A DNA stretch of 64,000 nt from an uncultured Bacilli bacterium (GCA_934096235.1 CAKOLO010000002.1:301919-365918), one strand, 5' to 3'; counted from the stretch's first letter, positions 18,165 to 57,265 are shown. The notes: generated by a model not told the origin, from the sequence alone. Translations and numbers: made by a program.

Positions 18165-18575
18165 CTATCTTTTATTTTTGAAGAAATTACTTAATATTTC
18201 ACTAAAAATGCTTTCATATTCACAATTTTTTATTTTTGTTATTATCATATTGTTATTAACATTTTTATTATTATCAACTATATAATATATTTTCTTAATT
18301 CTTGCTTCATTTATAACTGTTAAACACATGTTGCATGGTTTTAATGTTACATATAATTCACAGTCATTTAAATTCCATGATTTAATTTTTTTGCATGCTT
18401 TTTTTATAGCGAGTATTTCTGCATGTGCCATTGGATCCTTTTTTGTAATTTTTTGATTATATGCACTGGAAATAATTTGTTTGTTTTTTGTTATTACACA
18501 TCCAATAGGTACTTCATCTTTTTTAATAGCTTTAGTTGTTAATGATATAAGCTTTTTATAAATTTTTTCATTCAT
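18165..18575 (-). CDS. tadA: tRNA-specific adenosine deaminase TadA
   Basis: CDA zinc motifs HAEILAI and PCNMCLTVI; a start at MNEKIYKKL (18575) with RBS GAGGAAAAG is preferred over the longer track ORF, which would run through the SRP RNA. Confidence 0.8.
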   Translation of the reverse strand: MNEKIYKKLISLTTKAIKKDEVPIGCVITKNKQIISSAYNQKITKKDPMAHAEILAIKKACKKIKSWNLNDCELYVTLKPCNMCLTVINEARIKKIYYIVDNNKNVNNNMIITKIKNCEYESIFSEILSNFFKNKR

Positions 18576-18594
18576 ACTTTTCCTCACAAAAAAA

Positions 18595-18664
18595 GTGCAC
18601 ACAGAATAGTGTTTAAGGCTGCTATCTTCCGATTCTGACCTGATTCGCATTCTTTCTGTTGCAC
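18595..18664 (-). ncRNA. ffs: small (4.5S-like, ~70 nt) signal recognition particle RNA
   Basis: Minus strand reads GUGCAACAGAAAGAAUGCGAAUCAGGUCAGAAUCGGAAGAUAGCAGCCUUAAACACUAUUCUGUGUGCAC followed by a U-run. It contains the conserved domain-IV core CAGGUCAG...CGGAAG...AGCAGCC and a closing helix GUGCA../..UGUGCAC. It sits next to tadA and dnaX, as scr does in Bacillus. Ends are approximate. Confidence 0.55.
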
Positions 18665-18711
18665 AAATAAATTATATATTATTTTAAATATTAAATCAAG
18701 TATTTTTATTA

Positions 18712-18727
18712 TGTTCCACGTGGAACA
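18712..18727. promoter_or_regulatory. parS-like site 1 (perfect palindrome TGTTCCACGTGGAACA)
   Basis: Exact 16-bp palindrome matching the Firmicute parS consensus TGTTNCACGTGAAACA; followed by TAATGTTAATAAC. Confidence 0.7.
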
Positions 18728-18997
18728 TAATGTTAATAACTTATATTATCTGCACATTAATAAATTTAATATAATATTTCAATGTTAATTAATTTCAAAT
18801 TAATTTGTTTATAATTATAGTTTATTTATTAAAGTATAAATTATTTTTTTAGTAAAATATTTTATTTATACATTCTTTAATAGTCAAAAATTGTAATATT
18901 ATAAGTTATATGTTTATTATATAATTCTTAAATATAGTTTTAAAGATTTCATTATGCTGTCAATTGCATAATAATTTATATTCATTTACTTATTTTA

Positions 18998-19013
18998 TGT
19001 TCCACGTGGAACA
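18998..19013. promoter_or_regulatory. parS-like site 2
   Basis: Identical 16-mer; followed by TATTGTTAATTAC. Confidence 0.7.
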
Positions 19014-19177
19014 TATTGTTAATTACTTTGAATTATTGTTTATTAATATTCTGTTTTTTCGTTAGCAACTTTACTTTTTATTGAAACATTTTTGTTTAAT
19101 TTTATAATATTTTATTCTGATTATTAAATTTCAATATAAAACCTAATGATAATATATTATTTATTTTAATAAAAAAT

Positions 19178-19193
19178 TGTTCCACGTGGAACA
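19178..19193. promoter_or_regulatory. parS-like site 3
   Basis: Identical 16-mer; followed by TTGTTAATACAAC. Confidence 0.7.
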
Positions 19194-19399
19194 TTGTTAA
19201 TACAACATATTTTGGACTTCTAATAATAATTTTCTTTCTTTCGATTGTTAATATGTTATATACATGTTACTTTATAATTAATATTTTGGATTTATCATTT
19301 TTTCGTGATGCTTTGTTAATAAATTTATCTATTTTTTGACCTTATTATTTTAATATTTCTTCTTTATTTTTTTCTAATATTTTGTTAACTGATTTTTTA

Positions 19400-19415
19400 T
19401 GTTCCACGTGGAACA
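19400..19415. promoter_or_regulatory. parS-like site 4
   Basis: Identical 16-mer; followed by TTGTTAATAACT. Confidence 0.7.
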
Positions 19416-19433
19416 TTGTTAATAACTTTTTTT

Positions 19434-19447
19434 ATTTCCCGGGAAAT
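19434..19447. promoter_or_regulatory. Noc-binding-site (NBS) consensus palindrome ATTTCCCGGGAAAT
   Basis: Exact match to the 14-bp NBS consensus described for B. subtilis Noc. It lies inside a 16-bp perfect palindrome TATTTCCCGGGAAATA flanked by T-runs, 18 bp after parS-4 and 13 bp before parS-5. CCCGGG is otherwise very rare in this ~25% GC sequence. Confidence 0.6.
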
Positions 19448-19460
19448 ATTTTTTTCATTT

Positions 19461-19476
19461 TGTTCCACGTGGAACA
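19461..19476. promoter_or_regulatory. parS-like site 5
   Basis: Identical 16-mer; immediately precedes the A-run/hairpin of the gyrA terminator. Confidence 0.7.
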
Positions 19477-19478
19477 TT

Positions 19479-19504
19479 TAAAAAAAAGAGTAATAAATTA
19501 CTCT
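19479..19504 (-). terminator. Rho-independent terminator of gyrB-gyrA operon
   Basis: Hairpin agagtaa-taaa-ttactct overlapping the gyrA stop codon, followed on the minus strand by an 8-nt T-run. Confidence 0.6.
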
Positions 19505-21930
19505 TCTTCTATAGGATTCACTTCCTTTTCAATTACTGATATTGAAGCAACTTTATTTTTATCTTTTAAATTAATTAATCTTACGCCTTTTGTTACTCTT
19601 CCCATTTGTGAAATACTATTTATATCCATTCTAATAATTATTCCATCTGATGTGATAATCATTAAGTCCTTATCATTATCTGTGGATTTAAATCCTATAA
19701 CATTTCCATTTTTTTCTGTTATATTAATTGTTTTTACACCTTTACTTCCTCTTTTTGTTTCTCTATACTCTTCTATAGCGGTTTTTTTACCATATCCATT
19801 TTCAGTAACAACAAGTAATAATTTTCCAGGTTCTGATATTTCCATTCCTACACATTTATCATTTGATAAATTAATTCCTCTTACACCTGAAGCTGTTCTT
19901 CCCATGATTCTTATTTCTTCTTCACTAAATCTTGCCATTCTTCCGTTTGAAGAACACATTAGTACTTGATCATTACCTGTTGTTTTCTTTACAGATATTA
20001 ATTCATCATCATCTTTTAGTGTAATTGCTATTTTACCACTTTGTCTTATATTATCAAATTCTGATATTAATGTTCTTTTGACTAATCCTTCTTTTGTACT
20101 AAAAAGCAAACATTTGTACGTTTCATTTTCATTTATTCTAATTATTGTATTAATTTTTTCATCCTTTTCTAATGATAATAAGTTAACAATTGGTAGTCCT
20201 TTTGCAGTTCTTGAATATTCAGGAATTTTATATCCTTTTAATCTATATACTTTTCCTTTATTTGAGAAGAATAATATATAGTCATGAGTATTCATTGATA
20301 GTAATTGTTCTACATAATCTTCTTCAGTAGTTGTCATACCTTTTATTCCAACACCACCTCTATTTTGTACTTTATATGTATCTTTTGGTGTTCTCTTAAT
20401 GTAATTTTTATTGGTAATTGTAACAATTATTTCCTCTTGTGGAATCAATGATTCGTCTTCAATATATTCTATTGCACTATTATCAATTTTAGTTCTTCTT
20501 TCATCACCATATTTAGCTTTAATTTCAAGCATTTCTTGTTTGATTATTGCTAATACTTTTTCTTCACTTGCTAATATTGATTTATATTCCTCTATTAATT
20601 TCAAAATATTTGCTAATTCCTCTTCAATTTTTTCTCTTTCTAAGCCAGTTAATCTTCTTAATTTTAATTCTAGAATTGCATCTGCTTGAATTTCGCTAAA
20701 TCCATATTTTTCAATTAATCTTTCTTTAGCTATTGAGTCACTTTGACTTTCTTTTATTATTTTAATAATATCATCTATATGATCTAAAGCAATTTTATAG
20801 CCTTCTAAAATATGTGCTCTTGCTTCAGCTTTTGCTAAATCAAATTTTGTTCTTCTAATTATTATTTCTTTTTGGTAATCAATGTATTTTGAAATAATAT
20901 CTTTAATTCCTAGTGTTCTTGGTTGACCTTGGTCTAACATTAAGAATATAATTCCAAATGTTGATTGTAATTGTGTATGTTTATATAAGTTGTTCAATAC
21001 TACATTAGCATTTGCTTCTTTTTTTAGTGTTACGACTATTTTTATACCATTTTCAATATTTGTTTCTTCGTGATAATCAGCTATTCCTTCTAATACTTTA
21101 TCTCTAACTAGTTCTGCGATTCTATTTTTTAGATCTAATGTATTAACATTATAAGGTATTTCCGTTATTACTATTCTATTTCTATTATTTGTTTCTTCTA
21201 TTTCTGCTTTACATCTTATTGTAATTGTTCCACGACCTGTCTCATAGGCTTTTTTTATTCCACTACTTCCTAAAATAATGCCACCTGTTGGAAAATCAGG
21301 ACCCTTAATATAATTCATCATTTCCATGGTATCTATTTCAGGATTATCTATATAAGCAACACAACCATCTATCACTTCACCTAGATTATGTGGTGGAATA
21401 TTTGTTGCCATTCCGACTGCAATTCCCATTGTTCCATTTACTAAGATGTTTGGGAATCTACTTGGTAATACTACTGGTTCTTTTTCAGTTTCATCAAAAT
21501 TTGGCGTGAAATCAACTGTATCTTTGTTAATATCTCTTAATAATTCTAAACTTACTTTTGCAAGTCTAGCTTCTGTGTAACGCATTGCTGCTGCACCATC
21601 ACCATCCATGTTACCAAAGTTTCCATGTCCGTCAACTAACATATATCTATAACTGAAGTCTTGAGCCATTCTAACCATTGCTTCATATATTGATGAGTCT
21701 CCATGTGGGTGATATTTTCCCATTACATCTCCAACAATTCTTGCACATTTTCTGTGTTGTTTGTCTGGTGTATATCCTGATTCATACATTGAATAAAGTA
21801 TTCTTCTATGAACTGGTTTTAAGCCATCTCTTAAATCTGGAATTGCTCTTGAGACGATAACACTCATTGAATAATCTAAAAATGAATCTTTTACTTCTTT
21901 TATTATATTATTTTGTTCTATCTTATCCAT
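19498..21930 (-). CDS. gyrA: DNA gyrase subunit A
   Basis: 810 aa; AAMRYTE active-site Tyr region, QRF..G.GNFG, C-terminal beta-pinwheel repeats. Confidence 0.95.
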
Positions 21931-25020: not shown

Positions 25021-25060
25021 TAAAAAAAGATAATTTTAATTTTAATTATCTTTTTTTGCT
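25021..25060. terminator. bidirectional hairpin terminator between comK-like and recF
   Basis: aaagataatt-ttaatttt-aattatcttt, a 10-bp stem flanked by an A-run and a T-run. Confidence 0.5.
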
Positions 25061-25497
25061 GTTCTTTCATCTAAAACAAATTTTAATCTTGTGGCTCTAA
25101 GAATTTGATTGGATAATGAGCCATATGATAAATCAAATTCCAAGATATCACCGTTCTTAAATAGAATTGCTGACCTATTATTTTCCAATTTGTAGTATTT
25201 TTCAATTTTTTCCAAATTAATCCATATGCAATCTTCTCTTTCTGGTGATGTTGTAGGAAAAAAAATCATTTTTCTACTTTCTTCTACTATTATTGGTGAT
25301 TTGTGAGTTATTCCGAGCATCTTACGAGTTCCATCTTTTCTTCCTTCAAATGAACTGCCAAAATATTCACAACTGTGTTCTAAAATTTCTTGAACTGAGT
25401 TATTAACTATGTATTCACTATCATGTTCTATTACTTTTGATTTGAACTCATCAATTGGAAGAACTAATTGTGTATCATAGTTTATTTCATAATTCAT
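25042..25497 (-). CDS. ComK-family competence transcription factor-like protein
   Basis: 151 aa; the blocks SCEYFGSSFEGRKDGTRKMLGITHKSPIIV and MIFFPTTSPEREDCIWI and FDLSYGSLSNQILRATRLK align with the conserved ComK core of B. subtilis ComK as I recall it (SCRFFGSSYAGRKAGT..ISHKPPIMV / IFLFPTLSSTRPQCGWI / ISYNSFENQVYRTAWLR). Good RBS AAAGGGGG. Confidence 0.7.
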   Translation of the reverse strand: MNYEINYDTQLVLPIDEFKSKVIEHDSEYIVNNSVQEILEHSCEYFGSSFEGRKDGTRKMLGITHKSPIIVEESRKMIFFPTTSPEREDCIWINLEKIEKYYKLENNRSAILFKNGDILEFDLSYGSLSNQILRATRLKFVLDERTAKKDN

Positions 25498-26876: not shown

Positions 26877-28286
26877 TTATTCACAAATTTTTTCTTTTAG
26901 TATCTTAATTTCTTCTTGAAGTTTTGTATTTGTTTTTAGTTCATTTGAAATTTTTTCGTGTGAGTATATAACTGTTGAATGATCTCTACCTCCAAATTCT
27001 AAGCCTATTCTTTGTAAACTTTCTTCTGTCATTATTCTACTTAAATACATTGCTATCGCTCGAGCATCTGTAACATTTTTCTTTTTCATTTTTCCTTTTA
27101 GCATCGATGCCTCTAAATTGAAGTATTTGGCAACTATATCTATGATTTTAGCTACAGAATTTGTTCTATATACTGTCTTTGGTACAAATTCTTGTAGTGC
27201 ATCTTGTGCTATTTCTAGTGTTACTTCAGGAATATTAAATGCTGCTTTATATGCAACAATTCTTATAACAGCACCTTCTAAGTTTCTTATATCACTTCCA
27301 CAGTTACTTGCTATATAGTTAATAACATCTTCATTTATATCTAAATCATAGTCATTAATCATTATTTTATTCTTAATTATATTCTTTTTAAGCTCTAGTT
27401 CTGGTGGATTAATTGATTCTGTTAATCCCCATCTAAACCTTGTTTTAAGCCTATCTTCTAGGTATTTATAGTCATTTATTGATGTATCAGAAGCAATTAT
27501 TATTTGTTTTTCATTATCATATAATGTATTAAATGTGTTAGTAAATTCTATTTGTGATTTTGTTGCGTTTTCTAGAAATTGTATATCATCAATCATCAAT
27601 ACATCAACATTTCTATATTTTTCTCTAAAAGCTTCTAAATAACTAACATTGTTATCATATTTATTTTTAGCATTTATTATGGCTCTATAGTCATTTGTAA
27701 ATTGTTCTGCAGTAATGTAGAGAACTCTTTTGTCTGAGTGATTTACTATATAATTTCCTATTGCATGCATTAAATGTGTTTTACCTAATCCACTTTTTGC
27801 ATATATAAAATAAGGATTATATAATTTTCCTGGATTTTGTGCTACTGCTAATGCTGTTCCATATGCTAATTTATTGGAATCGCCAACGACAAATGTATCA
27901 AAAGTATATTTTGGGTTAAAATTGCTTATATATTTATAATTTGTTAAATCATTTGCTGTTGATTCTTCTATTTCTTCTTCAATTTCTTTTTTACTTTGTT
28001 TTTTCGGTTTTTCAGCCATTTTTTCAAGTTTTTTTATATCTTTTTCAAACATGTAAGATATTTCACATGTATCACTTGTTATATCGTTTAATATATCTTC
28101 TATTATTGAACTATAATTTTTAGTTATATTTTGTAATAAAAGCTCATTTGTAGGTACTATTATTATTATTTTACTATCTTCATAAGAATAAAGTTTTAGA
28201 TCCTTAAATATGTAGTTATAGGACATTAATGATACTTTATTTTTGATTTTCTCTAGAAATTTTTTCCAAATATCTTCAATATCCAT
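26877..28286 (-). CDS. dnaA: chromosomal replication initiator DnaA
   Basis: 469 aa; Walker A GKSGLGKTHL, sensor/box VII, C-terminal DNA-binding HTH (DHSTV). Confidence 0.95.
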   Translation of the reverse strand: MDIEDIWKKFLEKIKNKVSLMSYNYIFKDLKLYSYEDSKIIIIVPTNELLLQNITKNYSSIIEDILNDITSDTCEISYMFEKDIKKLEKMAEKPKKQSKKEIEEEIEESTANDLTNYKYISNFNPKYTFDTFVVGDSNKLAYGTALAVAQNPGKLYNPYFIYAKSGLGKTHLMHAIGNYIVNHSDKRVLYITAEQFTNDYRAIINAKNKYDNNVSYLEAFREKYRNVDVLMIDDIQFLENATKSQIEFTNTFNTLYDNEKQIIIASDTSINDYKYLEDRLKTRFRWGLTESINPPELELKKNIIKNKIMINDYDLDINEDVINYIASNCGSDIRNLEGAVIRIVAYKAAFNIPEVTLEIAQDALQEFVPKTVYRTNSVAKIIDIVAKYFNLEASMLKGKMKKKNVTDARAIAMYLSRIMTEESLQRIGLEFGGRDHSTVIYSHEKISNELKTNTKLQEEIKILKEKICE

Positions 28287-28612: not shown

Positions 28613-30076
28613 ATGAATAAGAAAGAATTGTTAGAAAATTATTTAAAAAAATTATACAAAATATATATTGAAAAAGACTTTAATGAGTTTGTTAATACGA
28701 TACTAAGTTATAACATAAGGATTGGAGATTATAAGAAAGATATTTCATCAATTTCTAAAAAAATTTTTGACGAAATATTGGTTTTACTTCCTGAAAGTAA
28801 GGCGAAATTCTCATATAAAGAATTTACCAATTTTTATAAGATAAATATAATATATAAAGAATATAACGATCCAACGCCTAAAGTCATAATAGATGTTCCG
28901 GTGTTTATAGAAAACTATGAAAAAATAACAAATAATTTAATAAAATTTTTAATAGAAAATAAAATTAATTCTTATATTAAACTACAAAAAGTATCTCAAA
29001 ATGCTTTACTTGAAATTCGCGTTGATAATGAAGCAGAAGCTAAAAAGATAGTTAATCACTTTAAAACAAATAAAGAAATAGTTCAAGAAATAAAATCTAG
29101 GGTAGTTCCATTTTTACCTGAAGATAATCTACTAGGTTTTTCATATGAATATAAACCATATAATTTTAAAAATTTTTATTATGTTTGTTTATATGAATAT
29201 TTTTCAACACTTAAATCTATCGATAATTTAACTTTGGATGGTTTAGTTGCTTACATAGATAATAAATATAAAGTTGAAAGAAGACTAAATAAAAAGAGAA
29301 TGCTATTATCAATTTATAATAGTATTAGGGTTATAAATGAAGAAGATGATATTTATTCTATGTTTAGATATAATTCTGATATGAATATTGGCAGTATAAA
29401 TCCTAATGAGTTTGATTTAAAACTTGATGAAAATAAGATGATATTTTTTGTTAATAAATTGGATGAAAGAATAATTTCATATGGAAGTGAAGAATATTTG
29501 AATTTAGTTTATTCAAAATTTTATGATAATTTTATTAAAAGAGAAGAGAGTTCTACATATTATGGCTATTTTTATAATATTTTTAGTAAAATTTTATCAG
29601 ATGATTACAAAGATATTGATAAATTATTAGATTTTTCTAATATGCAAAAAGATTATATTTATACTTTAATGATGTTAATATCTAGTTTGTTCTTTGCATA
29701 TAAAAAAATGAATTTTTCATTAAATGATGTTTATTCTATATTAAAATATGTGCTATTTAAAAAATATAAACTAGAAATCAAAATAAAATCTTCAGAAGAA
29801 TATGAAGAAAAGAAAAATATATATATTTTTCCATTAAATATTGAATATGGAAATAAAGTCGTTGATTTAAAAGATAAATCTAAAATAACAGTTAAGGAAT
29901 ATTTTAGGCAAAATAAAATTGAGGATACCATTCCTTTAAATTCTCTTGTATATATGAAAGATGGAAAAATATTAAAGGGAGAAGATTTTTTAAGAGATTT
30001 ATATAAATATATTGGTTTATATGATTCATTTGAAGAATTGAGAAATTCACTAATAAGTTTAATAGAATTTAAATAA
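28613..30076 (+). CDS. hypothetical cytoplasmic protein (487 aa, K/Y/N-rich, no recognisable domain)
   Basis: Long uninterrupted ORF with an RBS-like GGAGATATGGG upstream; no TM segment or known motif. Confidence 0.5.
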   Translation: MNKKELLENYLKKLYKIYIEKDFNEFVNTILSYNIRIGDYKKDISSISKKIFDEILVLLPESKAKFSYKEFTNFYKINIIYKEYNDPTPKVIIDVPVFIENYEKITNNLIKFLIENKINSYIKLQKVSQNALLEIRVDNEAEAKKIVNHFKTNKEIVQEIKSRVVPFLPEDNLLGFSYEYKPYNFKNFYYVCLYEYFSTLKSIDNLTLDGLVAYIDNKYKVERRLNKKRMLLSIYNSIRVINEEDDIYSMFRYNSDMNIGSINPNEFDLKLDENKMIFFVNKLDERIISYGSEEYLNLVYSKFYDNFIKREESSTYYGYFYNIFSKILSDDYKDIDKLLDFSNMQKDYIYTLMMLISSLFFAYKKMNFSLNDVYSILKYVLFKKYKLEIKIKSSEEYEEKKNIYIFPLNIEYGNKVVDLKDKSKITVKEYFRQNKIEDTIPLNSLVYMKDGKILKGEDFLRDLYKYIGLYDSFEELRNSLISLIEFK

Positions 30077-33631: not shown

Positions 33632-35494
33632 ATGAAATATGATGTTATAGTTGTTGGTGGGGGTCACGCTGGATGTGAGGCTTCTTTAGCTTGTGCTAGA
33701 ATGGGTGAAAAAACTTTACTTATTACAATTAATATAAATAATATAGCAGATATGCCTTGTAATCCATCAATAGGTGGTTCTGCAAAGGGTATTGTTGTAC
33801 GTGAAATAGATGCATTAGGTGGAGAAATGGGTTATTGTGCTGATAAAACTCATCTCCAAATTAAGATGCTTAATGTAAAAAAAGGACCTGGTGTTAGATC
33901 ACTTAGATGTCAAGGATGTAAGGTTAATTATCCTAAAGAAATGCTAAAAACTTTAAGAGAAACTAAGAATTTAGATATTAAAGAAGCAATAGTTAAAGAA
34001 TTAATTGTTGAAGATAAAAAAGTATGTGGAATTATTACTGAAGATGGTGAAAGAATAGAAAGTAAAGCTGTTATTCTTACGACTGGAACATATTTAAACT
34101 CTGATATTATGTGTGGTCATGAAAAACATAAAGGTGGCCCTCATGGTGAAAAAAATTCTATGTATTTAAGTGATTCTCTTCAAAAAAATGGAATAAAAAT
34201 AATAAGATTAAAAACTGGTACTCCTCCTAGAATTTTAAAAAGTAGTATTAATTTTAATGAAGTACAAATAGAAGAAGGAGATAAAGAGCCTCTTACATTT
34301 AGTAATTTTTATGATGCAACTTATGATGTTAATAAACAAACACCATGTTATTTAACTTATACTAATAAAGAAACACATAAAATAATTATGGATAATTTAG
34401 ATAAATGTTCTTTATATAGTGGAATGATTAAAGGAGTTGGACCTCGTTATTGTCCATCTATTGAAGACAAAGTAGTAAAATTTAATGATAAAGATAGACA
34501 TCAAATATTCCTAGAACCTGAACGTAGTGATGATATAGAATATTATGTTGGTGGGTTTTCTACTACTATGCCTCATGAGATACAAGAAAAATTATTAAAG
34601 ACTATGGATGGTCTTCATAATGTAGTAATAACTAAATATGGTTATGCAATTGAGTATGATGCAATTGATCCATTACAATTAAAGATGTCATTAGAAAATA
34701 AGGTACTTGAAAACTTATTTACTGCTGGACAAATAAATGGAACTAGTGGTTATGAAGAGGCAGCTGCTCAAGGGCTTATGGCAGGTATTAATGCATCTTT
34801 AAAATTACAAGGAAAAGATCCATTTATATTAAAGAGAAATGAAGCATATATAGGTGTACTTATTGATGACTTGATTAATAAAGGAATAACTGAACCATAT
34901 AGATTATTAACTTCTCGTGCCGAATTTAGATTACTTCTAAGACATGATAATGCATCACTTAGATTGACTCCTTATGGTAGAAAACTTGGTCTTATAAATG
35001 ATGAAAAGTATGGAATATTTACTAAGATGATTAATGATATGAAAGAGTTAGAAGAATATTTAGAAAATAGTTATCTAACATCTACTGATGAAGTAAATAA
35101 GTTTTTAGAAAGCATTAATTCTTCTAAAATATATGGAAGGACATCACTTAAAGATTTAGTAAAAAGACCTGAAATTGATATATGTGTTTTACTTGACTAT
35201 ATGAATAGACCGTATGATAAAAAGATCGCTGATATGGTTCAAATAGAAATTAAATATAAAGGATATATAGATAAGACTAAAGCTGAAGTAGAAAAGATGT
35301 TAAAACTTGAAAATAAACAAATACCTGAAAATATAGATTATGAAAAAGTACCTAATATAGCTACTGAAGCAAGACAAAAATTCAGTAAGATTAGACCTCT
35401 AACTATAGGTCAAGCATCTAGAATAAGTGGCGTTAATCCATCTGATATAACCATGTTATTAGTTTATTTAAAAAAGGAATACAATAATGACTAA
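33632..35494 (+). CDS. mnmG: tRNA uridine 5-carboxymethylaminomethyl modification enzyme MnmG
   Basis: FAD fold VIVVGGGHAGCEA; 620 aa. Confidence 0.95.
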   Translation: MKYDVIVVGGGHAGCEASLACARMGEKTLLITININNIADMPCNPSIGGSAKGIVVREIDALGGEMGYCADKTHLQIKMLNVKKGPGVRSLRCQGCKVNYPKEMLKTLRETKNLDIKEAIVKELIVEDKKVCGIITEDGERIESKAVILTTGTYLNSDIMCGHEKHKGGPHGEKNSMYLSDSLQKNGIKIIRLKTGTPPRILKSSINFNEVQIEEGDKEPLTFSNFYDATYDVNKQTPCYLTYTNKETHKIIMDNLDKCSLYSGMIKGVGPRYCPSIEDKVVKFNDKDRHQIFLEPERSDDIEYYVGGFSTTMPHEIQEKLLKTMDGLHNVVITKYGYAIEYDAIDPLQLKMSLENKVLENLFTAGQINGTSGYEEAAAQGLMAGINASLKLQGKDPFILKRNEAYIGVLIDDLINKGITEPYRLLTSRAEFRLLLRHDNASLRLTPYGRKLGLINDEKYGIFTKMINDMKELEEYLENSYLTSTDEVNKFLESINSSKIYGRTSLKDLVKRPEIDICVLLDYMNRPYDKKIADMVQIEIKYKGYIDKTKAEVEKMLKLENKQIPENIDYEKVPNIATEARQKFSKIRPLTIGQASRISGVNPSDITMLLVYLKKEYNND

Positions 35495-36197
35495 AGAAGA
35501 ATTTATATTATATTGCAATAAATTAAATATTAAGATAAGTGAAGAATTGTATAGTAAGTTTTTTACTTATTTTGAAATGTTGGTAGAATGGAATAATAAG
35601 TTTAATATGACTACTATTCTTGAAGAAAAAGACGTATTTTTGTTACATTTTTATGATTCATTATGTTTATTTAAAGTAGTGGATTTAAATAAGGAAGTTA
35701 ATTTATGTGATTTTGGTACAGGTGCTGGATTTCCGGGACTTCCTATAGCTATAGTTTTTCCTAAGGTTAGTGTTACATTAGTTGAATCTAATGGAAAAAA
35801 ATGTATGTTCTTAAATGCAATAAAAGATTCTCTAAAGTTAGAAAATGTTACTGTAGTAAATGATAGAATTGAAAATTTTAGTACTAAAGAACGTGAAAAG
35901 TTTGATATTGTTACTTGTAGAGCTGTTACTTCAATACCTATGATACTAGAAATGGCTACATCTTTAGTAAAAGTAAATGGTGTGCTTGTTCCATTAAAAT
36001 CAAATTGTGAAGAAGAATTAGTTAAATATAGTTATTTAGAGAATGAACTTGGTATAAAACTAATTCAAAAAGAAGTATATAGTTTACCTATAAATGATGC
36101 TTATAGAGTAATACCTGTATATAAAAAGAAAAAAACAACTGATAAAAAGTATCCTAGAAGTTATAATTCTTTATTAAAAATGTATAAAAATAAATAG
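35487..36197 (+). CDS. rsmG: 16S rRNA m7G527 methyltransferase RsmG
   Basis: DFGTGAGFPGLP SAM motif; position after mnmG. Confidence 0.9.
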   Translation: MTKEEFILYCNKLNIKISEELYSKFFTYFEMLVEWNNKFNMTTILEEKDVFLLHFYDSLCLFKVVDLNKEVNLCDFGTGAGFPGLPIAIVFPKVSVTLVESNGKKCMFLNAIKDSLKLENVTVVNDRIENFSTKEREKFDIVTCRAVTSIPMILEMATSLVKVNGVLVPLKSNCEEELVKYSYLENELGIKLIQKEVYSLPINDAYRVIPVYKKKKTTDKKYPRSYNSLLKMYKNK

Positions 36198-36276: not shown

Positions 36277-37509
36277 ATGGACGAGAACAAAGATAAAATT
36301 TATTACATACCAGTTGAAGATATTATACCTAATAGATTTCAACCAAGGCTTGCTTTTGATGAAAAAGAATTAAATGAACTTGCTAATTCTATTATTAAAT
36401 ATGGTGTTATTCAACCTATTGTACTTAGAAGTATTGGTGAAAAATATGAAATAATCGCAGGTGAAAGAAGATATAAAGCTTCATGCATTGCTGGTCTTAA
36501 AAAGATTCCTGCTATTATAAATAATACTGATGATAATACTAGTGCTGAGATAGCTTTACTTGAAAATCTTCAAAGAAAAAATTTATCTGTTATTGAAGAA
36601 GCACAATCATATAAAAAGTTAATGGATAGAGGTTTTACTCAAGAAGATATAGCTATAAAACTTGGTATTAGTCAATCAGCTGTAGCTAATAAAATGAGAC
36701 TTTTAAATTTGCCAAAAGAAGTACAAGATGCTCTTTTATATAATAGAATATCTGAAAGACATGCTAGAAGTTTATTGTCACTTAATAATGAAGATTTACA
36801 AAAAAGTTTGCTACATAGAATTACTAGTGAAAAGTTAACTGTTAGACAAACGGAAGAAGCAGTTAGTGAATTATTAAATAGAGATAAGATTGAAAAAGAA
36901 GAACTACCAAGTGATATTCAAAAATTTTTAAAACCAGAACCAGTGGTTGAAACTAAAGAACAAGTTATCGGTAATAATCCTGTTGAGGAATATTTAGATA
37001 TTAAAGTTCCTGATGTAGTTTCAATTGAACCTGAAACATCTGTTTTAACTGAATATACTGATGATACTCAAATAATAAATCCATTTCAAAATGTTAATTC
37101 AGCTAATGAGGTTCAAAATACTATTAATAGTAATATTGTGTCAAATAATGAAATATCAAGTAATATTGAGACACCATTTATAAGTGAAAATGTTAATAAT
37201 GCTTACAATGAAACTGAAAAAGAAACGGTTAATTTTGTAAAAAATGATGAACCAGCAAATAATACAAATAATACTTACTTCAATCCATATAAGTTTCCAG
37301 ATGAAAAGGAAGAAGTGAAAGAAGAAATAACTGATGAAGATTCTTTATTAAATGAATATGGTGAAGTTAATTTACCAAAAGTAATTAATAAAGTAAGAGA
37401 TTTTGTTAGTAGTTTAGATCAAGTAAGTAGTTTAATTGAAACTAGTGAAGTAGATTTAACTGATAAATACCAAATTATTATTGAAATTAATAAGAACACA
37501 CCTATGTAG
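36277..37509 (+). CDS. noc: ParB-family protein, Noc-like (nucleoid occlusion protein paralogue) with long low-complexity C-terminal extension
   Basis: ParB N-domain (IPNRFQPR, GERRYKA, ENLQRKNL) and HTH (TQEDIAIKLGISQSAVANKMRLLNLP). The ISERHARSLLSL and IPNRFQPR blocks resemble B. subtilis Noc (ITERHARAL, VPNRFQPR) more than Spo0J (GHGR, PNPYQPR), from my recollection of those sequences. Sits immediately after rsmG where noc lies in Bacillus. The ~200-aa N/E-rich C-terminus is unusual. Confidence 0.65.
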   Translation: MDENKDKIYYIPVEDIIPNRFQPRLAFDEKELNELANSIIKYGVIQPIVLRSIGEKYEIIAGERRYKASCIAGLKKIPAIINNTDDNTSAEIALLENLQRKNLSVIEEAQSYKKLMDRGFTQEDIAIKLGISQSAVANKMRLLNLPKEVQDALLYNRISERHARSLLSLNNEDLQKSLLHRITSEKLTVRQTEEAVSELLNRDKIEKEELPSDIQKFLKPEPVVETKEQVIGNNPVEEYLDIKVPDVVSIEPETSVLTEYTDDTQIINPFQNVNSANEVQNTINSNIVSNNEISSNIETPFISENVNNAYNETEKETVNFVKNDEPANNTNNTYFNPYKFPDEKEEVKEEITDEDSLLNEYGEVNLPKVINKVRDFVSSLDQVSSLIETSEVDLTDKYQIIIEINKNTPM

Positions 37510-50720: not shown

Positions 50721-51306
50721 TTGTTTAATTACAATTATTTTTATTTTTTTAATAAAATATATTGACACATTATAAATTATTTGATAATATATATTTGTCC
50801 AATAGATAATTAAATGTTATATCTATTATATAATGATTTATTTAAGTTTAATTATTTTTATAAACTTATATAATAATATAAATGGTTTAATTATATTAGT
50901 GAAAAAGTCTATAAATTTTTTACTTATTTATATTGGATATAATAATATTATTTTTCAATTATATGTTCTTAATTAGTATTAATTTACTAACTTAATTATG
51001 TATCTATCTTATTAATAATATCTTATATCAAAATAATATAAATAATAAAAATATCTTATTAATTTAAGAAATAGATGTCTTATCTACTAAGGACAAATGT
51101 TATAACGTTGAGAAAGTAAAACTCAAAATGATAAGAAATTATGCTAAATACTGATAATATTTAGAAGTATTTATATTAATTTAAATATTAATATAAATGA
51201 TTCATAATTTATTTTCGGAAACTCGAAACAATCTTGTTTTATCAGAACGGGTTGTTTTTTGTTTGTTTAAGAATGTGAAAAGTGATATTATAATTATGGT
51301 GAATAT

Positions 51307-56750: not shown

Positions 56751-57265
56751 TAAACTCCCTTTAAATATGTAAAATAGTATGGAATATTATAAATTAATTT
56801 TACGGCTTTGGTCGAGTTGAATTTCTCTAATTCCTACCATTAGTTACCTGCAGGCGATTTCTCTTTAAAAGAATTAATCACTTGTTACCATTAATGATCA
56901 CTCGATCACCACTTAGTCCGCACTTCAATCTTTATAATATAGGCATACTAGAGGTTTTCCCAAGCAAACATGTATCACCTTTATTCGCTTTTGCAATTTA
57001 TTTTTCAATCACTATCCCAATAAATCACTCACGACATGTGTTTTCATATTTTCCGATGTGAATTAAGGAATTCAGATATATGCCATTACATCTTATCCTT
57101 AAAACTAAAATTATATATCCACCCCAAACTGGGCGTAAGAAGCGTAATATATAAAGTATCATTTTACACAATTGATGGATTTTTAGCCCCATCTTCTAGT
57201 GGTATGTTTGACTAGTATAATGCTCCATACATCTAGAATTATAGCATATTTTAATGAAAATGTCA

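Follow-up and report, generated by a model that had tools for sequence, protein, structure and literature searches.

We report a perfect Noc-binding site (NBS) embedded in a cluster of five parS sites close to the chromosomal origin of an uncultured gut bacterium of the Bacilli with a G + C content of about 25%. Judged from the sequences of both partners, the site very probably is an NBS read by the ParB-family protein encoded at 36277-37509. The fuller statement, that this is a real NBS and the loading site of that protein within a composite origin-proximal centromere, we consider likely, with some reservation, and an origin or centromere function of the Noc-type protein is put forward tentatively.

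The window, by which we mean the whole stretch of 64,000 nucleotides that was analysed, spans the chromosomal origin, with a switch in GC skew near 28.3 kb. On the minus strand, dnaA is followed by dnaN, a comK-like ORF, recF, gyrB and gyrA, and the plus strand carries rpmH, rnpA, yidC, jag, mnmE, mnmG and rsmG. A gene-free spacer of 830 bp extends from the gyrA stop codon (19498) to the SRP RNA gene (18589-18668) and is filled by the parS/NBS cluster, which lies about 9 kb from the DnaA-box cluster of oriC. Beyond the SRP RNA, the gene order is tadA, dnaX, ybaB, recR. The relevant features are the following.

18165-18650, minus strand: tadA-like deaminase ORF; the Pfam match starts at residue 27, and since its listed start runs into ffs, the ORF probably begins near 18572-18590
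18589-18668, minus strand: SRP RNA (ffs; RF00169, 48.1 bits), the other boundary of the spacer
18712-18727, unstranded: parS-1, followed by TAA and TGTTAATAA and located directly upstream of the promoter region of the SRP RNA
18998-19013, unstranded: parS-2, followed by TAT and TGTTAATTA
19178-19193, unstranded: parS-3, followed by T and TGTTAATAC
19400-19415, unstranded: parS-4 (TGTTCCACGTGGAACA), which forms a parS/box/NBS unit with the next two features
19417-19425, minus strand: DnaA-box-like 9-mer between parS-4 and the NBS, TGTTAATAA on the plus strand and TTATTAACA on the minus strand
19433-19448, unstranded: NBS TATTTCCCGGGAAATA, a perfect palindrome of 16 bp on which the Noc-type protein is proposed to nucleate
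19461-19476, unstranded: parS-5, the copy nearest to gyrA, conserved in orthologous spacers
19478-19510, minus strand: intrinsic terminator of gyrA, a hairpin that overlaps the stop codon and is followed by U8 (-11.1 kcal/mol, z = -4.0)
19498-21930, minus strand: gyrA (DNA_topoisoIV and GyrA C-terminal repeats)
26877-28286, minus strand: dnaA
28439-28536, unstranded: oriC DnaA-box cluster, six boxes with at most one mismatch, upstream of dnaA and at the GC-skew switch
35487-36197, plus strand: rsmG (gidB), the classical upstream neighbour of noc
36277-37509, plus strand: Noc-type ParB-family protein of 410 aa with a ParB N-terminal domain, an HTH and Q133/K139/N144/R161

Other elements of the window include the ComK-family ORF between dnaN and recF (25042-25497, minus strand; PF06338, 7e-46) and a 487-aa ORF between the oriC DnaA-box cluster and rpmH (28613-30076, plus strand), which was called as a gene in three independent assemblies and had no match in Pfam or NCBIfam. 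A full-length OLE RNA (207 bits) with small ORFs on either side was found in this 25% G + C gut MAG at 56763-57244 (minus strand), and a PGK RNA motif is located at 51.1 kb (51072-51164, plus strand).

The NBS palindrome is bordered by T-runs on both sides (cTTTTTTT ... TTTTTTTc) and contains the 14-mer ATTTCCCGGGAAAT at 19434-19447. All 16 positions agree with TATTTCCCGGGAAATA, and an identical 16-mer has been co-crystallised with Noc of B. subtilis (bioRxiv 10.1101/2022.02.28.481274). A preliminary description of this DNA had claimed an exact match to the 14-bp NBS consensus at 19434-19447, within a perfect 16-bp palindrome flanked by T-tracts, and both points are borne out. The 16-mer begins 17 nt past parS-4 and ends 12 nt ahead of parS-5 (18 and 13 nt when the gaps are measured from the 14-mer), which corresponds to centre-to-centre distances of 28 and 33 bp. 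The hexamer CCCGGG occurs once in the 64-kb window, within the NBS. Looser matches elsewhere in the window (at most three mismatches) are at chance level, with 3 seen and 1.9 expected, and the NBS is therefore single in the window; the roughly 81 kb of sequence covered for this species contain no second NBS.

Origin-proximal parS is a palindrome of 16 bp, TGTTNCACGTGNAACA, whose positions 2 and 7 are G and A, respectively. It is represented by five perfect copies of TGTTCCACGTGGAACA, which start at 18712, 18998, 19178, 19400 and 19461; the chance expectation is 0.08. Four of the five copies carry a one-sided extension (18728-18739, 19014-19025, 19194-19203 and 19416-19425) that consists of T, TAT or TAA, followed by TGTTAAT(A/T)(A/C). 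The heptamer TGTTAAT is about 11-fold enriched in the spacer, on the plus strand only, and stand-alone copies were seen at 18783, 19246 and 19314. In the extension of parS-4, the DnaA-box-like TTATTAACA is one mismatch away from TTATNCACA, and the unit in the window reads parS-4, T, TGTTAATAA, CTTTTTT, NBS, and then parS-5. The pair TGTTAATAA / TTATTAACA was not accepted as a DNA motif of general meaning: its 4.5-fold over-representation across the whole window and its frequency in coding DNA form a pattern that looks codon-driven, and its fixed position beside parS alone is meaningful.

The putative reader of the NBS is encoded by the sole ParB-family gene in the window, directly after rsmG and 17 kb from the site. 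The protein matches PF02195 (1e-32) and PF17762 (4e-33), contains the CTP-domain motifs GERRYKA and ENLQRK, and has its best solved-structure matches in Noc (195, 194 and 183 bits, versus at most 161 bits for Spo0J/ParB). With 271.5 bits it stays below the cut-off of 315 of the Noc model TIGR04285 (NCBIfam), because only positions 2-205 of the 255 model positions align. According to Jalal (2020, PMC7383237), specificity in the ParB family depends on four positions, which read RTAG in ParB and QKKR in Noc. The bases peculiar to the NBS are recognised by Q173 together with R201, a lysine at 179 or at 184 has a permissive effect, and every parS-specific variant had R173. A comparison of these HTH residues with Spo0J and Noc had been proposed in the preliminary description, and in an alignment to Noc structures the protein reads Q133-K139-N144-R161, i.e. 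the NBS type Q-K-N-R, with N instead of K at position 184 (Noc numbering). At the metagenome loci L104 and L157, two canonical Nocs whose N-termini are hydrophobic likewise read Q-K-N-R, and Q-K-x-R is present in 147 of the 150 nearest cluster representatives; a QKNR variant was not found by name in the text of the supplementary files of Jalal 2020 (PMC7383237). The Noc-type protein is predicted to read NBS and not parS. An acidic, Asn-rich linker of about 150 aa separates its HTH from the Noc-like C-terminal domain. Within this variable linker (36880-37350, residues ~202-358), the motifs DIQKFLKP, INPFQ and YFNPYKF are conserved and may bind partners.

The association of NBS and parS was followed through the gyrA loci of 80 related genomes (69-99% GyrA identity; 1.41 Mb). 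In all 78 relatives with enough sequence, parS directly follows gyrA, and 76 of them have at least two copies (median 3.5, maximum 12); an NBS with at most one mismatch lies inside this post-gyrA cluster in 22 of the 78. NBS numbered 4.4 per 10 kb at distances of up to 150 nt from a parS, compared with 1.5 for the remaining non-coding DNA and 0.24 for coding DNA. The enrichment beside parS over other non-coding DNA is thus about 3-fold only, partly because that spacer is the largest gene-free stretch nearby. An independent, NBS-anchored metagenome scan with an 18-mer pattern yielded at least 120 stretches; parS was present within 100 bp of the NBS in 29 of the 95 low-G + C stretches among the matches listed, where the centre-to-centre distances peaked at 20-34 bp. 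The NBS had been described as adjoining parS and coupling two ParB-family elements in one locus, and this co-location recurs in the relatives. Several lineages have alternating parS/NBS tandem arrays, with five 61-bp units at locus L144, 123-bp units at L145, and further arrays at L164, L174, L097 and L077 and in the L099/L109/L207 group. In the literature, we found no description of arrays that interleave two different ParB-family sites or of parS/NBS composites.

Two further observations concern the site arrays of the relatives. Tandem parS arrays are located right after gyrA at L047:3579-4602, L034:4149-4699, L054, L069, L072, L078 and L030, and examples of parS arrays comprise 9 copies at an exact period of 126 bp, 11 copies at 53-54 bp, 7 copies at ~37, 74 or 83 bp, and a maximum of 12 copies within 1.7 kb. 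A hybrid site TATTTCACGTGAAACA with an NBS-type outer base and a parS-type core is present inside the alternating array of L145 (6317-6332 and 6440-6455); it may represent a natural transition form between NBS and parS.

The NBS sites of the clade, as far as their contigs can be placed, appear almost confined to the oriC-proximal region. Among the matches listed, 59 of the 63 NBS-anchored low-G + C loci of at least 5 kb (94%) contain homologues of genes in the window; this estimate derives from contigs in the 18-mer-pattern metagenome scan and not from whole genomes. The genes nearest to the NBS among these matches are gyrA (38), tadA (33), dnaX (17), recF (9), mnmE (9), jag (8) and ybaB (8). 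The preliminary description had expected NBS to be scattered over the genome, an expectation that the mostly oriC-proximal loci among the matches listed and the one NBS in about 81 kb do not support. Several contigs of relatives (L012, L014, L034, L051, L080 and L086) clearly are members of the clade, with 70-76% GyrA identity and the same synteny, but are filed under MAG names of Muribaculaceae, Methanobacteriaceae or Vescimonas, which is probably due to mis-binning or mislabelling. In at least nine metagenome loci, the NBS is located in the recF-gyrB spacer, about 40 bp upstream of the gyrB start (L094:5033, L102:5198, L110:6689, L098:7516, L171:4016, L190:1958, L197:3417, L172:1030 and L168:5842), where an influence on the gyrBA promoter is conceivable. 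The window has no recF-gyrB spacer, since these two genes overlap there.

We propose that the NBS would act as the specific nucleation and loading site of the ParB-family paralog encoded at 36277-37509. By analogy with the biochemistry of B. subtilis Noc and ParB, a dimer would dock on the NBS, bind CTP, close as a clamp and slide onto the flanking DNA. The NBS would then be one element of a composite origin-proximal centromere, together with five parS sites that would serve a canonical ParB, and the Noc-type protein would mark or organise the origin or centromere region alongside ParB and possibly DnaA. We infer the origin or centromere role from the lack of a membrane helix in the protein and from the oriC-confined, parS-paired NBS of the relatives.

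The canonical ParB that would bind the five parS sites presumably has its gene outside the window. Searches with tblastn (Spo0J and Soj probes) of the window and of the gyrA loci of the 80 relatives recovered the noc-type gene only, and neither canonical ParB nor Soj was found in the flanks of the window (8.6 kb on the left, 8.5 kb on the right). Relative L160 encodes a helix-less Q-K-S-R Noc-type protein (58% identity to that of the window), followed by soj and a canonical R...G ParB. The gene row noc-type, soj, spo0J of L160 indicates that a two-protein system exists in this group, and because its five parS copies are perfectly conserved, the species studied here should also encode ParB; the two-protein picture rests on these two observations. 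A homology search seeded with the ParB of L160 returned close relatives of L160 only, and none on contigs of this species.

According to a different account, the site would be one of many scattered Noc sites of a classical nucleoid-occlusion system, in which the protein tethers DNA to the membrane and blocks the Z-ring, and the closeness of parS would be incidental. The gene is located after rsmG, as is noc, the C-terminal domain resembles that of Noc, and the average NBS density in B. subtilis is about one site per 60-80 kb, all of which would suit such a system. However, the first residue of the protein corresponds to residue 24 of Noc, an in-frame stop lies 21 nt upstream of its ATG, and its N-terminus is acidic (net charge of -3 in the first 16 residues); the protein thus has no amphipathic helix in the region of the Noc membrane helix (about aa 1-15). 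None of the 150 best representatives at 50% clustering (242-831 aa, median 463) has an N-terminal extension. The motif PNxFQPR is found at an offset of 14-21 in 142 of the 145 representatives that have it and at 26-29 in the other three (in five the motif was not found); in B. subtilis Noc, we take this offset to be 39. In a hydrophobic-moment scan for a substitute amphipathic helix, which was not decisive, the top windows were a helix of the C-terminal domain and DIQKFLKP. The N-terminal amphipathic helix was present in all Noc homologues examined by Adams (2015, PMC4331003) and is needed for membrane binding and function; in Noc, CTP gates this helix (Jalal 2021, PMC8429893). A literature search for Noc-type proteins without the helix, which was partly unspecific, found nothing.

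The position of the sites likewise speaks against membrane-tethering nucleoid occlusion: the 94% of oriC-proximal contigs given above for the matches listed are at odds with scattered sites, and tight, recurrent pairing with parS is unexpected if the proximity is incidental. Classical, genome-wide nucleoid occlusion is therefore the less likely function, and we regard it as unlikely for this protein. The coupling of segregation with nucleoid occlusion in the preliminary description stands insofar as a ParB-family protein of the NBS type is encoded, but the nucleoid-occlusion label is doubtful, the N-terminal membrane helix being absent. An SPFH/Band-7 gene (PF13421; 37606-38763, plus strand) lies directly after the Noc-type gene, where soj-spo0J is normally located, and its product is a candidate membrane partner of the helix-less protein.

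It is also conceivable that the NBS-bound protein forms no spreading complex of its own and instead acts as a boundary or roadblock, e.g. by limiting the spreading of ParB towards gyrA, or modulates either ParB clamps or, at the adjacent box, DnaA, e.g. by tuning initiation. In several species, the NBS separates the gyrA-proximal parS from the other copies of the array. Relatives have a perfect DnaA box TGTGGATAA at the offset of the DnaA-box-like 9-mer, the unit being parS, T, TGTGGATAA, 3-5 nt and NBS, and about six lineages have a DnaA box at a fixed offset in the interval from parS to NBS. Across all low-G + C loci, a box with at most one mismatch to TGTGGATAA is found 0-4 nt from parS in 35 of 474 cases, versus 5 of 1,876 control positions. 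Noc of S. aureus, moreover, has been linked to replication-initiation control, which it restrains, and shows minor binding beside dnaA (Pang 2017, PMC5540599). The spacing of NBS and parS, however, is not fixed but ranges from 19 to 47 bp across species, the NBS also occurs alone in dnaX, upstream of gyrB and near mnmE, and the protein has retained the CTP-domain motifs required for clamp closure. A boundary or modulator function without spreading is thus rather improbable, and a clamp-loading site remains the preferred reading.

That another factor reads the palindrome, either an unrelated transcription factor or a CCCGGG-specific restriction-modification enzyme, deserves mention since the assignment as an NBS is based on sequence. 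CCCGGG is a known restriction-enzyme target and nearly absent outside the motif, with 63 of the 70 CCCGGG hexamers in the relatives lying inside an NBS. Conservation, however, extends beyond the hexamer and covers the full 16-24 bp, with a motif of approximately AAAWT-TATTTCCCGGGAAATA-AWTTT in the relatives. Every genome of the clade that was examined encodes a protein with exactly the NBS-reading residues, and the co-variation with parS arrays suits a ParB paralog. We consider an unrelated reader scarcely probable.

The conservation pattern points to a DNA site rather than to an RNA structure. An alignment of eight orthologous spacers shows no invariant sequence apart from the cores of parS and NBS; all 16 positions of the NBS are kept, and the sequence between the cores drifts. 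Within dnaX of several relatives (L014:14584, L015:14732, L016:7869, L017:14508, L029:14281, L033:14284 and L074:14272), the NBS lies in a hypervariable linker and is encoded as I-S-R-E-I (ATT TCC CGG GAA ATA) with the rare codons TCC and CGG. In other species (L011, L024, L032 and L037), a parS encoded as V-P-R-E-T occupies the same place in the linker; dnaX of the window has neither NBS nor parS. The use of rare codons in dnaX, the invariant cores and a weak hairpin together argue for a protein-binding site selected at the DNA level, and the NBS of the relatives is under purifying selection.

The suggestion of the preliminary description that the palindrome might double as a bidirectional intrinsic terminator was prompted by the T-tracts on both sides and is in keeping with a location downstream of gyrA. 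It was rejected on folding: the RNA hairpin is weak (-2.3 to -2.8 kcal/mol, z = 0.1 for the -2.3 kcal/mol fold), and 82-103 of 200 shuffled sequences fold equally well. In addition, the palindrome is absent from the output of the terminator scan of the window, gyrA already has its own strong terminator at 19478-19510 (0 of 200 shuffles fold equally well), there is no convergent gene on the plus strand, and the identical motif lies within ORFs in 36 of 64 cases among the relatives. Terminator function is very improbable.

A chance palindrome had already been deemed improbable and can be dismissed: its sole support is the singleness of the site in the window, the base composition predicts about 1.5e-5 exact 16-mers per window, four further assemblies (99% GyrA identity), as well as other species, have kept the NBS at this place, and the exact 14-mer occurs 63 times in the 1.41 Mb of relatives, versus 0 occurrences of any of the 139 palindromes that share its half-site composition. 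Among 1,645 wider control palindromes, the parS core (179) and the NBS (63) were the only ones to occur more than once.

The system is best filed as a variant of Noc-NBS, whose DNA-recognition half matches Noc and whose membrane helix and site distribution differ. The B. subtilis Noc-NBS system is reportedly the subject of work by Wu & Errington. The present system shares with it the identical 16-bp site, a ParB-family paralog encoded after rsmG, the ParB N-terminal CTP domain, the HTH residues Q/K/R at 173/179/201 and the Noc-like C-terminal domain. Unlike B. subtilis Noc, the protein lacks the N-terminal amphipathic membrane-targeting helix and has N for K at position 184, and in the clade the acidic, Asn-rich linker between HTH and C-terminal domain measures 150 to >400 aa. 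In B. subtilis, NBS are scattered over the origin-proximal two-thirds of the chromosome, whereas those of the relatives are oriC-proximal and paired with parS; an adjacent soj-spo0J, as in B. subtilis, was not seen in the window and its flanks. In S. aureus, noc and parB are not necessarily adjacent. Noc of S. aureus has the same NBS core but is membrane-associated, with 41 sites over +/-700 kb (PMC5540599); in the clade, the sites are found next to parS and DnaA boxes and no more than tens of kb from oriC.

Clusters of origin-proximal 16-bp palindromes and the logic of a loading site are shared with chromosomal ParB-parS systems (Spo0J/ParB, CTP-gated sliding clamps). parS and NBS differ at two positions per half-site, and the NBS would be read by a different paralog, with Q173/R201 instead of R173/G201. 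For the arrays of the relatives, we take plasmid centromere iterons such as F sopC to be a likeness that serves as a lead only. As in those, there are head-to-tail arrays of 5-12 sites with fixed periods of 37-265 bp, but the arrays of the relatives are chromosomal and their unit consists of two or three sites (parS, sometimes a DnaA box, and NBS).

A bolder and rather doubtful extension is that the Noc-type paralog, its specificity switched from parS to NBS and without an anchor, has its loading sites built into the origin beside parS and, in many cases, a DnaA box, and constitutes a second, orthogonal CTP clamp at a composite centromere that couples segregation with replication-initiation control and does not mediate nucleoid occlusion. 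The helix-less Noc-type protein may represent an intermediate on the path from ParB to Noc, or it may be derived secondarily from Noc.

The textbook example of a ParB duplicate with a newly acquired DNA specificity and a new job, namely to tether DNA to the membrane and thereby to block division, is Noc. The lineage described here appears to be a natural system with the first change only, in which NBS specificity is found without the membrane helix and the sites are still at the centromere, and the NBS sequence has remained unchanged in uncultured gut Bacilli with reduced genomes. Two questions become testable in such a system: which role Noc-type proteins have before, or without, membrane binding, and how one stretch of origin DNA is shared by two orthogonal ParB-family clamps. 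The natural parS/NBS arrays could also serve as tools for dual-colour locus labelling.
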